In this document: positions 23-6,363 of the stretch, one piece after another
Numbering within the stretch: position 1 is the stretch's first letter
Layout of the letters: the number at the start of each line of letters is the position of its first letter
Source: a virus
Taxonomy: Duplodnaviria; Heunggongvirae; Uroviricota; Caudoviricetes
Direction: 5' to 3' (one strand)
Length of the DNA: 11,981 nucleotides
Virus record (IMG/VR): IMGVR_UViG_2606217102_000003
Location: 1 to 11,981 of that record
Notes under the pieces: generated by a model
Seen by the model: only the letters and a program-made list of their open reading frames with translations
What the model was told of the DNA's origin: nothing
The model's database searches: none
Translations under genes and position numbers: made by a program

Positions 23-259
23 TCACTCACCTGAGTTTCTTTCCAGCCAGCGACGGGCACCATTTTCGGTTTTAAACGTTTTGCTTTTGGTATACGTCAT
101 CGCGGTGAACGTACCGTCCTGGTTGGGGAACACGCCACATACCAGAGATTCGTTGTTGCCAAGATCGATAGTATCCATGCTGACCTCATTTCCCCTTAAC
201 GCCGGGGTAGCGGAACAAAAACCTGCTGCATAGTTATTAAAGTTGAACCCTGCCGTCAT
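23..259 (-). CDS. Hypothetical small protein (78 aa); first ORF downstream of the candidate leftward early promoter
   Basis: Complete minus-strand ORF in the track. A GAGG Shine-Dalgarno lies about 10 nt upstream of the ATG (reverse complement of 257-259). Sits directly downstream of the operator-bearing region at 360-404. No family recognised. Confidence 0.4.
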   Translation of the reverse strand: MTAGFNFNNYAAGFCSATPALRGNEVSMDTIDLGNNESLVCGVFPNQDGTFTAMTYTKSKTFKTENGARRWLERNSGE

Positions 260-359: not shown

Positions 360-404
360 ACTATAGGAAATGCCTAATTACTTGTCAATAGGCTATGCCT
401 AATA
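360..404 (-). promoter_or_regulatory. Candidate leftward early promoter (P_L-like) overlapped by an operator copy
   Basis: On the minus strand: -35 TTGACA (rc of 382-387), 16-bp spacer, -10 TATAGT (rc of 360-365). The 21-bp element ttgtcaataggctatgcctaa (382-402) is the exact reverse complement of 1027-1047 on the other side of the repressor gene. Extra GCCTAAT half-site-like motifs at about 372-378 and 414-421. Confidence 0.45.
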
Positions 405-496
405 ATTTGGGCGCAACCTAATAGGTGATGGTTTGTGGAAGAGGTAGTAGGAGTTAACTAACGGGAACTAGGAATTTCCCGTCGGACCATATAAGT

Positions 497-973
497 TTAA
501 GTTCCTGTCTTGGTGATGTTCTGGCTTTTCCGTTTTGATTCTTGATTTTTCAGATAGTTAGCTACCTTCATTTCCATTGCGGCAATGTAGGCGCGAACGT
601 CATGATCAACCCAACTAGGCTCCGTAGCATTTCCAGATAAGATGAAAGCCACAATTGCTCTTTTTTCATCAGAGGCGGCTTGATAAAGGCTGTTTATGTC
701 TAAAAGTTCACTTTTTGTATCTGAAGTGGATGGGGTTGGTATGGGGTATTCGTTAAGCCCCCAATGCTCTGGACCAACCACATCAGAAAAGAAACGCCAT
801 AGTTCTGGAAGTTTGTCTTTACTTATCGAACCTTTCTTAATCCAGTCATGGATTGATGGTGGTTGGACTTTGAAATGACGTGCGATTTCCGCCTTTGATT
901 TGACGGCTCCTGATGCAATTTTTTTGTTAATGGCCTGCTCTATCGCTCGGCCTAAGTCTTTACCACTAAGCAT
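497..973 (-). CDS. racR: Prophage repressor, RacR-like (CI-type HTH DNA-binding protein, 158 aa)
   Basis: 158-aa ORF with an N-terminal HTH-like segment (SKAEIARHFKVQPPSIHDWIKKG). Divergent from ydaS/ydaT-like genes, the same arrangement as the Rac immunity region. GGAGA RBS upstream of the ATG. Symbol assigned by synteny and length, not by alignment. Confidence 0.75.
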   Translation of the reverse strand: MLSGKDLGRAIEQAINKKIASGAVKSKAEIARHFKVQPPSIHDWIKKGSISKDKLPELWRFFSDVVGPEHWGLNEYPIPTPSTSDTKSELLDINSLYQAASDEKRAIVAFILSGNATEPSWVDHDVRAYIAAMEMKVANYLKNQESKRKSQNITKTGT

Positions 974-1025
974 TGCTTAATAGTCTCCTATGCGCATCGC
1001 GTTAGGCAATCCCTACTCTCGATGT

Positions 1026-1070
1026 ATTAGGCATAGCCTATTGACAATTTCATTAGGCTAAGCCTAATAT
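1026..1070 (+). promoter_or_regulatory. Candidate rightward early promoter (P_R-like) with two palindromic operator sites
   Basis: -35 TTGACA (1042-1047), 17-bp spacer, -10 TAATAT (1065-1070). Near-palindrome ATTAGGCATAGCCTATT (1026-1042) overlaps the -35; perfect palindrome ATTAGGCTAAGCCTAAT (1052-1068) overlaps the spacer and -10. Confidence 0.55.
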
Positions 1071-1097
1071 TGTTGCGTGTTTTTTGGAGTTCATTCG

Positions 1098-1421
1098 ATG
1101 AAAAAAGATAACTATTCATTCAAACGAGCTTGTGCTGTTGTCGGTGGGCAATCAGCAATGGCTAGGCTTTTAGGTGTATCTCCTCCAAGCGTAAATCAAT
1201 GGATCAAAGGTGTACGTCAGTTACCTGCTGAGAGATGTCCTGCGATTGAACGAGCAACAAAAGGTGGTGTCCTGTGTGAAGAACTTCGTCCTGATGTTGA
1301 TTGGACATACTTACGACGCTCGTCATGTTATTCGCAGAATATGTCGATGAAGCAACCAAATGACGAAAACGATCATACCCGAAGCATCAAGAGGCAAATG
1401 ATTCATGAAAATCAAACATGA
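1098..1421 (+). CDS. ydaS: YdaS-like Cro-type HTH protein (107 aa)
   Basis: GGAG RBS at 1086-1089, 8 nt before ATG 1098. Protein begins MKKDNYSFKRACAVVGGQSAMARLLGVSPPSVNQWIKG, which matches my memory of YdaS-family proteins. Positioned as first rightward gene opposite the repressor. The track start at 1077 is probably too far upstream. Confidence 0.75.
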   Translation: MKKDNYSFKRACAVVGGQSAMARLLGVSPPSVNQWIKGVRQLPAERCPAIERATKGGVLCEELRPDVDWTYLRRSSCYSQNMSMKQPNDENDHTRSIKRQMIHENQT

Positions 1422-1830
1422 GCACATCCGCATGGCGATGAATGCCTGGGCATACCCTGATGGTGAGAAAGTTCCTGCAGCTGAAATAGCCCGGACTTAT
1501 TTCGAACTGGGGATGACGTTCCCTGAACTGTATGACGACAGCCATCCGGAAGCCCTGGCTCGCAATACCCAGAAAATTTTCCGCTGGGTAGAGAAAGACA
1601 CCCCTGATGCAGTTGAAAAAATTCAGGCGTTGTTACCAGCGATCGAAAAGGCAATGCCACCTTTGCTGGTGGCCAGAATGCGCAGCCACAGTTCAGCTTA
1701 TTTTCGGGAGCTGGTGGAGATGCGGGAGCGACTGGTGAGAGACGCTGATGATTTTGTCGCAGTGGCAATCGCCGGTTTCAATCAGATGAACCGTGGTGGC
1801 CCGGCAGGAAATGCTGTGGCAGTACATTGA
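1405..1830 (+). CDS. ydaT: YdaT-like protein (141 aa)
   Basis: Overlaps the ydaS-like stop by 17 nt (translational coupling). N-terminus MKIKHEHI and position match the YdaT family as I recall it. Confidence 0.65.
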   Translation: MKIKHEHIRMAMNAWAYPDGEKVPAAEIARTYFELGMTFPELYDDSHPEALARNTQKIFRWVEKDTPDAVEKIQALLPAIEKAMPPLLVARMRSHSSAYFRELVEMRERLVRDADDFVAVAIAGFNQMNRGGPAGNAVAVH

Positions 1831-1895: not shown

Positions 1896-2972
1896 GTGAG
1901 TATGGCTAACGCCTGGCTCAGATTATGGCATGACATGCCAAATGACCCTAAGTGGCGAACAATTGCCAGGGTGTCAGGGCAGCCAATTGCAACAGTGATG
2001 GCAGTGTATATCCACCTCCTGGTGAGCGCGTCACGAAATGTCACGCGAGGTCACATTGATGTCACGACAGAAGATTTGGCAAGTGCGCTCGACGTGACAG
2101 AAGAGGTAATTGATTCAATTTTGCAGACGATGCAGGGGCGGGTACTTGATGGTGATTTAATCACTGGATGGGAAAAACGCCAGGTGCTGAAAGAGGACAA
2201 CGGCAATATTTCGCAAACCGCAAAATCTCCGGCAGAGCGCAAGAGGGCGCAGCGAGAGAGGGAAAGAAAGCGGGAACAAAATGGCGATTGTCACGGCGAG
2301 TCACGAAATGTCACGCACATGTCACGACGAGTCACGACAGATAAAGATACAGATAAAGATACAGATCAAGAAGATCAAAACACTATGGTCCATGGCGTAA
2401 AAAACGCCACGAACCAGGCAGGGGATGTTCAGACCGTCACTCCTGGCCAGCCCGCAGGCACGACACCGGAAGCCGATTCAGCGTATGCGCTGAAAGCCGA
2501 TTCGGGCGCTGTGCAGCAGGTGATGACCGCAAGGCAGGAGCAATCACACCAACTTCAGCAGCCTGAAGCCGATTCCGCCATTCAGCGGGAAGCCGATCGG
2601 GTAGTCCCGGAAAACACCGGGCAGCCTGTGGGACGAGTGGATTATCCTGATGTGTTCGAACAGGTCTGGCGGGAATACCCGTTGCGTGCTGGGGCAAACC
2701 CGAAGAAATCCGCTTTCAGTGCCTGGAAGGCCAGATTACGCGAGGGGGTGTCACCAGAGGCCATGCTGGATGGCGTGAGGCGTTACGCAAGATACCTTGC
2801 GGCTACCGGGAAAACGGGAACGGAATTTGTTCAGCGAGCGACGACGTTTTTTGGACCGGACCGGAATTTTGAAAACCCCTGGCTGCTCCCGGTAAGCGGC
2901 ACGAACAACCAGCGTTGTGTGAATCATATTTCTGAACCGGATACCGAAATTCCACCGGGCTTCAGGGGGTAA
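1896..2972 (+). CDS. Phage replication initiation protein (replisome-organizer-like N-terminus, conserved phage C-terminal domain) with embedded origin repeats
   Basis: GAGGTGA RBS before ATG 1896. N-terminus WLRLWHDMPNDPKWRTIARV...VYIHLL fits the replisome-organizer N-terminal pattern (W-I/L-K/R-L...D-M-F-D-D-E-K). C-terminus FEQVWREYPLRAGANPKKSAFSAWKARL...TFFGPDRNFENPW fits a conserved phage replication C-terminal domain. Iterons lie inside the coding sequence. Confidence 0.7.
   Translation: MSMANAWLRLWHDMPNDPKWRTIARVSGQPIATVMAVYIHLLVSASRNVTRGHIDVTTEDLASALDVTEEVIDSILQTMQGRVLDGDLITGWEKRQVLKEDNGNISQTAKSPAERKRAQRERERKREQNGDCHGESRNVTHMSRRVTTDKDTDKDTDQEDQNTMVHGVKNATNQAGDVQTVTPGQPAGTTPEADSAYALKADSGAVQQVMTARQEQSHQLQQPEADSAIQREADRVVPENTGQPVGRVDYPDVFEQVWREYPLRAGANPKKSAFSAWKARLREGVSPEAMLDGVRRYARYLAATGKTGTEFVQRATTFFGPDRNFENPWLLPVSGTNNQRCVNHISEPDTEIPPGFRG
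2030..2070 (+). repeat. Iteron cluster A: four direct GTCAC(G) repeats at 10-11 bp spacing
   Basis: gtcacgaaat / gtcacgcgag / gtcacattgat / gtcacgacag, read directly from the sequence. An inverted copy gacgtgac lies at 2091-2098. Confidence 0.7.
2290..2340 (+). repeat. Iteron cluster B: five direct TCACG repeats at 10-11 bp spacing
   Basis: TCACG at 2291, 2301, 2311, 2322, 2332 (tgtcacggcgag tcacgaaatg tcacgcacatg tcacgacgag tcacgacag). Immediately followed by an AT-rich repeat. Confidence 0.75.
2339..2385 (+). repeat. AT-rich tandem repeat (agataaagatac x2, then agatcaagaagatcaaaa); candidate DNA-unwinding element
   Basis: Two perfect 12-bp tandem copies followed by related A-rich sequence. 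Encodes the acidic linker DKDTDKDTDQEDQN. Confidence 0.6.
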
Positions 2973-5800: not shown

Positions 5801-6100
5801 TTATAAGAAATCGGTTTCATAACTTTGCCCACCATGATAGATACCGACAATAAAGACTTTTCTGCCATCAACGGCAAAAGCAATAATCGTTCTGTGGCGG
5901 AAATGAGTTACCCGCATCCCCTGGCGAATATCATCGCGTTTATTGCCCCGATGCGGGAATGTAGAAAACCCATCAAGATAATCAAGAAGCGCATTGGCAT
6001 AATTGTCAGCAATGACGCTTCCTGCTTTCTCCGTTATGTATCTGTGCAGGTTGATTATCTGCTGTTCGGCCTCAGGAGTAATGATGACTTCATATGTCAT
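5801..6100 (-). CDS. parE: ParE/RelE-superfamily toxin (99 aa)
   Basis: MTYEVIITPEAEQQI...IIAFAVDGRKVFIVGIYHGGQSYETDF fits ParE-family toxins. Start placed at the internal ATG (rc of 6098-6100), 5 nt downstream of the antitoxin stop. The track ORF extends further upstream and would overlap the antitoxin. Confidence 0.75.
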   Translation of the reverse strand: MTYEVIITPEAEQQIINLHRYITEKAGSVIADNYANALLDYLDGFSTFPHRGNKRDDIRQGMRVTHFRHRTIIAFAVDGRKVFIVGIYHGGQSYETDFL

Positions 6101-6105
6101 GCAGA

Positions 6106-6363
6106 TTACTTCCCGGATCGAATCGCAGCGCGAACCTGTGAAATGGAGCGTCCGTTGTTCGGGTTTTTGCGGATTGAATCCAGGGAGGGGGCGGCTGAAT
6201 GCGTTAACCACGCTTCGATTGCTTTATCGCGCTCATTCAGTGCGCGAAGCCCTTCACGAATGACCTCGCTTTCTGAAGCATAGGCACCGGAAGCCACACG
6301 GGCGCGCACCATGTCAGCCATCTCGTTAGTTAATGTAATGCTGAATTGTTGGGTTGTACGCAT
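6106..6363 (-). CDS. parD: ParD-family (ribbon-helix-helix) antitoxin (85 aa)
   Basis: FSITLTNEMADMVRARVASGAYASESEVIREGLRALNERDKAIEAW matches the ParD/COG3609 pattern. GAGG RBS upstream of ATG (rc of 6361-6363). Antitoxin-then-toxin order. Confidence 0.7.
   Translation of the reverse strand: MRTTQQFSITLTNEMADMVRARVASGAYASESEVIREGLRALNERDKAIEAWLTHSAAPSLDSIRKNPNNGRSISQVRAAIRSGK

Follow-up and report, generated by a model that had tools for sequence, protein, structure and literature searches.

The DNA analysed is an 11,981-nt stretch (the window) of a Caudoviricetes record, IMG/VR IMGVR_UViG_2606217102_000003. Near its left end, a leftward racR is followed by rightward ydaS and ydaT genes, the three open reading frames having the positions and sizes given to them by the first-pass annotation (Table 1). 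Downstream of the PL-like promoter lies the first gene of the leftward operon, a mechanical ORF for which RefSeq relatives annotate positions 23-178 (51 aa); in two relatives it is labelled ydfA or DUF1391, and the counterpart in E. coli K-12 is ydaF. To the right, the replication initiator contains GTCACG iterons (2030-2098 and 2290-2336), a hexamer present in 14 copies in the window against 4.6 expected, with nine of the 14 inside one 310-nt stretch of this gene. RusA and a Q-like antiterminator are also encoded in the window.

Table 1. Features of the repressor locus and its immediate neighbours (window coordinates).
Feature	Position	Strand	Evidence
DUF1391 protein like ydfA/ydaF, leftward (PL) operon gene 1	23..259	-	PF07151, E 8.7e-29
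PL-like leftward promoter, TTGACA-17-TATAGT, 11/12 consensus positions	360..388	-	promoter scan
Candidate OL operator cluster, overlaps PL	362..422		motif scan; outside the interval of the first-pass annotation
OL site TATAGGAAATGCCTAAT	362-378
OL site AATAGGCTATGCCTAAT	387-403
OL third site, weak	406-422
racR, prophage repressor, predicted functional analogue of CI, 158 aa, N-terminal HTH	497..973	-	K-12 identity, NF049929
OR operator cluster, four inverted repeats	965..1068		motif scan, K-12 comparison
OR site ACTAAGC-ATT-GCTTAAT, covers racR ATG	965-981
OR site GTTAGGC-AAT-CCCTACT	1001-1017
OR site ATTAGGC-ATA-GCCTATT	1026-1042
OR site ATTAGGC-TAA-GCCTAAT	1052-1068
PydaST, PR-equivalent promoter, TTGACA-18-TAATAT	1041..1070	+	promoter scan
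ydaS, Cro-like HTH regulator, 107 aa	1098..1421	+	PF15943, P22_Cro, Cro structures
Position equivalent to K-12 reverse promoter PracR4 (PRE analogue)	1188..1220	-	alignment with K-12 ydaS
YdaT-box ATGATTCATGAAAATCAA, inverted repeat ATGATT-N6-AATCAA, ydaT ATG in spacer	1398..1415	+
ydaT, CII-like tetrameric activator, CP-933P/3C4R allele type, 141 aa	1405..1830	+	PF06254, phrog_163
Mosaic junction, 8 codons (~24 nt) into ydaT	1428..1440		blastn against K-12 and alignment
Replication initiator, lambda O position	1896..2972	+	phrog_3729 'replication initiation protein', E 2e-256

Positions 260-1900 recur with 100% identity in the chromosomes of two E. coli strains, Z0117EC0005 and B7A, in which PGAP labels the three genes racR, HTH domain protein and 'toxin YdaT family protein'. 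The closest relative carries int, xis, exo and dicB, the last on the leftward operon, together with lysis, head and tail genes; this amounts to a near-complete virion gene set with full lysis and morphogenesis functions, in which baseplate genes are frameshifted. In the closest relatives the element is integrated beside potC. The same chimeric arrangement of racR, ydaS and ydaT is present in 530 of 5426 complete E. coli genomes (~10%), at identities of up to 100%. Within the phage collection the full arrangement was found in no isolated phage: the best match, vB_EcoS-683R6, has a K-12-type racR-ydaS (71% coverage), and other isolated phages have the ydaT allele alone in common, beside different repressors.

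RacR is 91% identical to its K-12 counterpart (144/158) and passes the NCBIfam RacR equivalog NF049929 with 246.3 bits against a cut-off of 200, over residues 1-145. It matches no Pfam family (E up to 0.01) and none in PHROGs, and a PDB sequence search returned no credible solved relative (best E 0.63). The C-terminal S24 autopeptidase domain that marks the SOS-cleavable repressors of the LexA/CI type is absent. In K-12, operator binding by RacR and repression of ydaST have been demonstrated (PMC5700373, PMC9638921), and the protein has been described as an octamer, with prophage excision driven by YdaS (PMC11014345). A hairpin on the minus strand at 430-500, considered as a racR terminator or nut-like element, folds at -11 kcal/mol (z = -0.85), no better than shuffled sequences, and was set aside.

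YdaS is 85% identical to the K-12 protein (83/98), and begins MKKDNYSF where K-12 has MKKENYSF; it has 107 residues from the ATG, or 114 if started at an upstream GTG at 1077. The protein passes PF15943 (103.9 bits against a cut-off of 30, E 3.8e-30), scores 35.3 bits with P22_Cro and matches the Cro structures 3BD1 and 5W8Y, and its HTH resembles that of RacR (12/29 identical, E 5e-6). Relative to K-12, ydaS has a 12-nt deletion removing four codons, and a TGA to CGA change that adds 13 codons, carrying the reading frame through the YdaT-box and into a 17-nt overlap with the start of ydaT. A divergent YdaS homologue lies beside racR in 11 of 12 RacR loci from other genomes, a set that spans 57-91% identity and includes Escherichia, Mixta, Klebsiella, Proteus, Achromobacter and others.

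YdaT is of another allele type. It passes PF06254 (39.7 bits against a cut-off of 21) and matches phrog_163, 'CII-like transcriptional activator' (E 3.9e-45), and is only 33% identical to the YdaT of K-12 Rac (47/144), whereas identity reaches 95% with PDB 3C4R, an O6 homologue, and 83% with the YdaT (8BT1) of CP-933P, the Sp12 element of E. coli O157:H7 (paaR2-paaA2-parE2 / ydaS-ydaT). At 33% identity it does not group as an orthologue of the toxic, rcsA-activating K-12 allele. From the CP-933P protein it differs at 24 of 140 positions, while the predicted recognition-helix stretch, NTQKIFRW, is the same in both, the closest substitutions being V62L and E63D. At the DNA level, homology to K-12 Rac runs at 86% over 191-1428 and ends just past the YdaT-box. 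The module is a natural mosaic, of Rac type in RacR, YdaS, the YdaT-box and every operator, and of the CP-933P/3C4R type in YdaT beyond codon 8. The first-pass annotation had assigned the locus to the Rac-type immunity region, and had proposed alignment with the three K-12 proteins as a check, low identity counting against it; the gene order, the identical operator and promoter hexamers and the identities of RacR and YdaS uphold the assignment, and for YdaT the alignment goes against it.

The RacR operator motif, TAGGC-N3-GCCTA, falls into two clusters, OR and OL. At up to one mismatch TAGGCNNNGCCTA is matched five times in the window against 0.20 expected, a count reached in none of 200 shuffles, and all five matches adjoin racR; the operator set that had been read from the letters is real. 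The four OR sites, with centre-to-centre distances of 26, 25 and 36 bp, have half-sites unchanged from K-12, and agree with the published operator, (T/A)TAGGC-n3-GCCTA(T/A), footprinted there (PMC9638921). Since these are the operators already footprinted in K-12, the present copy adds little as the good model that it had been proposed to be. The two ydaS-proximal operators overlap PydaST, whose hexamers and spacing equal those of the mapped K-12 promoter (PMC11879457).

The OL cluster repeats this organisation to the left of racR. The segment 382-404 repeats 1025-1047, the segment containing OR2 and the -35 element, in inverted orientation and without a mismatch over 23 nt. Just two sigma-70-like sites were found in 200-1900, PR and PL, and operators overlap both. 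Half-sites and promoter hexamers at OL/PL are conserved in K-12. From this arrangement we infer that RacR would control the leftward promoter as well. A conserved OL/PL set would offer a simple reason why, in published work, RacR depletion derepressed leftward Rac genes, including ydaG, ydaF and kilR, 40- to 70-fold.

With up to two mismatches allowed, TTGATT-N6-AATCAA occurs in the window only at the YdaT-box. The box has the sequence and location of the footprinted K-12 box, and lies one nucleotide from the OM site of CP-933P (PMC11879457, PMC9986795). In K-12, the YdaT proteins of both Rac and CP-933P activate the reverse promoter PracR4 through this box, and do so equally (PMC11879457). 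The -10 of the PracR4 equivalent, TACGCT (minus strand, 1188-1193), is conserved, the -35 (1215-1220) reads CTGACG against TTGACG in K-12, a T-to-C change, and the spacer with the published hexamers is 21 nt (PMC11879457). Because of this -35 and spacer, and because a consensus promoter scan called no promoter there, the PracR4 equivalent is given as a position only.

Together, these features very probably constitute the lysis/lysogeny immunity switch of a lambdoid E. coli prophage with Rac immunity, comparable to lambda cI-cro-cII-O. The module is already known and well studied, a lambda-like CI/Cro/CII switch having been published for both Rac and CP-933P, and the first-pass view of YdaS and YdaT as Cro- and CII-like regulators, itself published (PMC5917428, PMC8630535, PMC9986795, PMC11879457), agrees with the matches to Cro structures and phrog_163. 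In the proposed mechanism, RacR dimers would bind the TAGGC-N3-GCCTA inverted repeats and assemble into higher oligomers; occupancy of OR, over PydaST, and of OL, over the leftward promoter, would silence both early operons and leave racR autoregulated. YdaS, as the Cro analogue with an HTH like that of RacR, would be expected to compete at the same operators, whereas YdaT, as the CII analogue, would bind as a tetramer to the YdaT-box over its own start codon, activating the reverse promoter inside ydaS and so raising racR transcription during establishment. The genes, identities, motifs, clustering and conservation behind this outline were computed on the present DNA; RacR binding, YdaT-box-dependent activation and cross-activation by both YdaT types come from experiments with the K-12 and CP-933P homologues.

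As in lambda, the repressor and the cro-cII pair are transcribed divergently, several partly symmetric operators overlap PR and a second set overlaps PL, a CII-type activator is directed at a reverse promoter inside cro, and an O-like initiator with iterons adjoins. It is distinct from lambda in that family scans detect no homology between RacR and CI and RacR has no S24 autocleavage domain, the YdaT site is an inverted rather than a direct repeat (PMC9986795), and the OL-OR gap is ~640 bp against 2.4 kb. In addition, K-12 YdaS does not repress racR, unlike Cro acting on cI (PMC9638921, PMC11879457), and of the two YdaT proteins only that of K-12, not that of CP-933P, binds the intergenic region as well (PMC9638921, PMC11879457). 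As a result, the lambda analogy is imperfect and the behaviour of the chimera is not predictable in detail.

With CP-933P, where the switch is bistable (PMC8630535), the locus shares the YdaT type, a YdaT operator differing by one nucleotide at the same ydaS/ydaT junction, and the CI/Cro/CII logic (PMC8630535, PMC9986795). There PaaR2 takes the place of RacR, and its operon is fused to a ParE2 toxin-antitoxin pair, whereas a parDE-like pair lies 4 kb away in this window (5801-6363), outside the repressor operon; identity between the YdaS of CP-933P and that of Rac is only 26% (PMC8630535), and YdaS here is Rac-type. Compared with K-12 Rac (racR-ydaS-ydaT, b1356-b1358), gene order and orientation are the same, and the RacR half-sites, PydaST, the OL/PL region and the 18-nt YdaT-box match exactly or almost exactly, from which an immunity specificity equal to that of K-12 Rac is predicted. 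The differences are the ydaT allele, replaced from codon 9 on, the deletion and read-through extension of ydaS, the PracR4 -35, and the setting, since K-12 Rac is a defective element in another chromosomal context, and the closest relatives here sit beside potC with near-complete virion genes.

Defective copies are numerous among the Rac-like elements of E. coli (PMC5700373), and the frameshifted baseplate genes of the closest relative and the weakened -35 of the PracR4 equivalent would also fit a cryptic prophage that has decayed to an inert state, in which genes and sites are recognisable and the switch no longer operates. This is very unlikely, given that all three reading frames are intact, that half-sites and promoter hexamers are invariant within DNA otherwise only 86% identical to K-12, and that 530 complete genomes share the arrangement; even the highly defective K-12 Rac retains a functioning switch (PMC11014345).

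It had also been suggested that loss of repression may be toxic through ydaS and ydaT. Two 2017 papers reported that racR is essential in K-12 and that ydaS/ydaT expression is lethal (PMC5700373, PMC5700377), and these reports, the Pfam names YdaS_toxin and YdaT_toxin and the PGAP label could be taken to indicate a toxin-antitoxin or 'toxin-repressor' module, with YdaS and/or YdaT as dedicated toxins and RacR mainly as their silencer. We consider this highly improbable. The two genes occupy the cro and cII positions beside a replication initiator, and their products resemble DNA-binding regulators; in the solved structures YdaT is an HTH/POU tetramer, and its operator has been mapped (PMC9986795). 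A later K-12 study found YdaS non-toxic, and the K-12 toxicity has been traced to Rac YdaT, acting via host rcsA (PMC11014345, PMC11879457). The toxin-antitoxin hypothesis had been tested earlier and was unsupported (cited in PMC5917428), and published evidence speaks against a type II pair of YdaS antitoxin and YdaT toxin (PMC5917428, PMC8630535, PMC11014345); the reading taken from the Pfam names was rejected on these grounds.

A narrower alternative, that the switch works as described, yet its YdaT is toxic as in K-12, through rcsA activation and then filamentation, is also unlikely, though less so. Both YdaT types share the YdaT-box and are equally effective activators of one promoter (PMC11879457), and with 24 substitutions relative to CP-933P YdaT the behaviour of the present protein could differ. 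Nevertheless, the toxic K-12 protein is a distant relative, the predicted recognition-helix stretch is that of CP-933P, and the CP-933P YdaT, the nearest relative for which toxicity has been examined, neither activates the rcsA promoter (PMC11879457) nor is toxic (PMC8630535). Since YdaT here is of this type, the toxicity idea transfers poorly, and toxic derepression via ydaS/ydaT is not supported as it was worded. Within the immunity-switch reading, derepression would probably still be harmful, as it equals prophage induction; we infer that RacR loss would do its damage by inducing the prophage, with DicB, replication and lysis as the agents, and not by way of YdaT and rcsA. Neither the toxicity known from K-12 nor the label 'toxin YdaT family protein' should be extended to every RacR-linked ydaT. 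Apart from correct annotation, the locus is of minor importance.

More tentatively, OL may be a second, so far undescribed RacR operator set, and the OL/OR arrangement suggests a looping model in which the RacR octamer could join OL to OR around racR. Equally tentatively, and independently of this, natural exchange of the gene in the cII position at the conserved YdaT-box/MKIKHEHI junction may yield Rac-immunity prophages whose repressor can be lost without killing by YdaT via rcsA, and racR 'essentiality' would then be allele-dependent. Among the 12 RacR loci from other genomes, an OL-equivalent pair, spaced 25 bp apart, is present downstream of racR in nine, and across the set motif matches are confined to an upstream triplet and, in these nine, the downstream pair.

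The three ORFs of the Rac-type immunity module proposed in the first-pass annotation, a RacR-like repressor gene followed by ydaS- and ydaT-like genes, are all found at 497–1830 (Table), and do not represent a chance ORF pattern. Neither this type of system nor the sequence itself, which occurs in annotated genomes, is new: 260–1900 is matched at 100% identity in the E. coli chromosomes of Z0117EC0005 and ETEC B7A, and RefSeq labels the genes there racR, HTH domain protein and "toxin YdaT family protein". Some part of this interval is matched by 3775 of 5426 complete E. coli genomes, with at least 80% of it in one piece in 530.

Alignment with the K-12 Rac region, the pairwise comparison that the annotation had proposed, identifies RacR (144/158 identical residues, 91%) and YdaS (83/98, 85%; N-terminus MKKDNYSF versus MKKENYSF) as orthologues of the K-12 proteins by sequence, whereas YdaT (47/144, 33%) is a different allele. 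The annotation's overall reading thus holds for RacR and YdaS and for the Cro/CII-like character of YdaS and YdaT, but not for the identity of YdaT or for the toxicity drawn from it. RacR scores 246 bits against the NCBIfam RacR equivalog (cut-off 200), and a Pfam scan of the protein found no S24 domain; it is therefore not expected to undergo RecA-stimulated autocleavage. YdaS is recognised by PF15943 and by P22_Cro, and matches Cro structures such as 3BD1; its HTH shares 12/29 residues with that of RacR (E 5e-6), a resemblance that fits operators common to both. YdaT passes PF06254 and is termed a "CII-like transcriptional activator" by PHROGs; among solved structures, it shares 95% identity with 3C4R, from an E. 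coli O6 prophage, and 83% with 8BT1, which is CP-933P YdaT.

Features of the immunity module and early region
Feature	Position	Strand	Details
Putative PL	388–360	-	TTGACA-17-TATAGT; directed into DUF1391 gene
Predicted OL sites	362–378, 387–403, 406–422		Third site weak
racR	497–973	-	158 aa
Predicted OR sites	1052–1068, 1026–1042, 1001–1017, 965–981		Spacing 26, 25, 36 bp; last over racR ATG
Putative PR (PydaST)	1041–1070	+	TTGACA-18-TAATAT; identical to mapped K-12 PydaST (PMC11879457)
ydaS	1098–1421	+	107 aa from ATG; mechanical GTG start at 1077 gives 114 aa
ydaT	1405–1830	+	141 aa
Replication initiation protein, O-like	1896–2972		Next gene after ydaT; PHROGs
ParE-family toxin (PF05016) and ParD antitoxin (PF03693) pair	5801–6103, 6106–6363	-, -	nin-like region; strand opposite early genes
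DUF968 protein	6773–7831		Late-early region; HNH-like nuclease signature
DUF1133 protein, Q-like antiterminator	8194–8748		Late-early region; weak similarity to antiterminator Q
N6/N4 DNA methyltransferase	9328–10377		Late-early region; just upstream of tRNAs and holin

The RacR operator, (T/A)TAGGC-n3-GCCTA(T/A), has been footprinted in the K-12 racR–ydaS intergenic region (PMC9638921). At up to one mismatch, TAGGCNNNGCCTA occurs five times in the window against 0.20 expected, a count reached in none of 200 shuffles, and allowing two mismatches yields seven sites, all within two clusters: OR, between racR and ydaS, and OL, downstream of racR and outside the originally annotated interval. A consensus scan of 200–1900 returned only two sigma-70-like sites, putative PR and PL, and 382–404 is a perfect 23-nt inverted copy of 1025–1047, comprising an operator and a -35 hexamer. 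In K-12 both regions are conserved, down to invariant half-sites and hexamers. Across 12 RacR loci (57–91% protein identity) from Escherichia, Mixta, Klebsiella, Proteus, Achromobacter and several metagenome-assembled genomes, motif matches comprised only an upstream triplet and, in nine loci, two sites on the downstream side of racR separated by 25 bp. No earlier description of the OL/PL set came to light in the accessible Rac literature, and this conserved, predicted operator set is one of the few mildly new points here. It would account for the reported response to RacR depletion, in which ydaG, ydaF, kilR and further leftward genes rise 40- to 70-fold (PMC11014345 section 23).

In two Achromobacter loci (L012 5537–5578, L014 4854–4895) the downstream pair lies 1.6–2.3 kb past the racR-like match, versus ~100 bp in enterobacteria; the protein match spans residues 1–77 only, the C-terminal part of the repressor differs, and extra DNA separates repressor and OL.

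A lambda-type switch is the best-supported reading. RacR, reported as an octamer in K-12 (PMC11014345), would take the role of CI, autoregulating and acting through OR and OL to repress PR and PL, with YdaS in the role of Cro and YdaT in that of CII, as activator of a PRE-like promoter. Only one sequence in the window fits the YdaT operator pattern: ATGATTCATGAAAATCAA at 1398–1415, letter-for-letter the K-12 YdaT-box, whose spacer contains the ydaT ATG (PMC11879457 section 18). The OM site of CP-933P differs from it by one base (PMC9986795). On this box, K-12 YdaT activates PracR4, a reverse promoter inside ydaS, up to 29-fold, raising racR expression, and the same reporter responds equally to CP-933P YdaT (PMC11879457 sections 18, 20). 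At the equivalent position in the window the -10 is conserved and the -35 is CTGACG, versus TTGACG in K-12; the consensus scan of 200–1900 did not call it a promoter.

The module is a mosaic. By blastn, 86% identity to K-12 extends over 191–1428 and no further, and the alignment places the end of homology after the first eight ydaT codons (MKIKHEHI). Rac-type sequence thus makes up RacR, YdaS, the two regulatory regions and the beginning of ydaT, and the ydaT body is, by sequence, of the CP-933P/3C4R type. Since both YdaT types activate the same reporter, such a chimera is expected to be functionally coherent. The ydaT allele occurs at ≥80% nucleotide identity in 3058 of the 5426 genomes, far above the 530 with the whole arrangement, and adjoins other repressors in isolated phages. 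Of the 12 loci, 11 have a YdaS homologue encoded divergently from RacR, and a YdaT homologue occurs in Escherichia-like loci only. Repressor, Cro-like gene and operators thus move together as a unit, with the cII position exchangeable. The junction at the YdaT-box is a further mildly new point. Relative to K-12, ydaS carries a 12-nt deletion and its stop codon is changed from TGA to CGA, making YdaS 13 codons longer, across the ydaT start. This read-through (1398–1421) traverses the YdaT-box and overlaps ydaT by 17 nt, such that bound YdaT would cover both the end of ydaS translation and the ydaT initiation codon.

One compared locus, L006 (JARKOR010000130.1), a 5.2-kb contig labelled as a "Candidatus Nanosynbacter" MAG, has a racR–ydaS–ydaT region essentially identical to K-12 (YdaT 100%), and is almost certainly a mis-binned E. 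coli contig.

The toxicity proposal reflects the literature on K-12 accurately (PMC5700373, PMC5700377, PMC5917428), but the inference does not transfer. K-12 toxicity was traced to Rac YdaT, not YdaS (PMC11014345 section 25), acting through direct activation of host rcsA, which CP-933P YdaT cannot activate (PMC11879457 section 22), and no toxicity was seen with CP-933P YdaT (PMC8630535). As the YdaT described here is far closer to that of CP-933P than to that of K-12, and shares with the former an identical stretch of the predicted recognition helix, NTQKIFRW, the YdaT–rcsA route is probably not at work here. RacR loss would nonetheless be expected to do harm, because a prophage that, judging from its closest relative, is largely intact would be induced. 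The consequence, toxicity that would depend on the ydaT allele, is likewise mildly new.

The neighbourhood is consistent with a lambdoid early region, with DUF977, DUF4406, Ead/Ea22 proteins and RusA also encoded. The parDE-type pair lies 4 kb from racR, unlike the parE2 system of CP-933P, which is fused to the operon of the repressor. In the closest relative the prophage adjoins potC, with int, xis, exo and dicB on the left and, on the right, genes for lysis, an HK97-type head and a contractile tail; the window stops short of dicB and the full lysis cassette. Within the initiator gene, GTCACG clusters at 2030–2098 and 2290–2336 show ~10–11-nt phasing (14 copies in the window versus 4.6 expected, nine of them in a 310-nt stretch of this gene), and resemble origin iterons within an O-like gene, an arrangement known from lambda; three tandem copies of ACAGATAAAGAT adjoin them at 2337–2372. 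ARAGORN called tRNA-Met(CAT) and tRNA-Arg(TCT) at 10427–10676. As RefSeq relatives annotate three tRNAs there (Ile, Arg, Arg), the CAT tRNA is probably of the lysidine-modified tRNA-Ile2 type, with the middle tRNA uncalled in the window.
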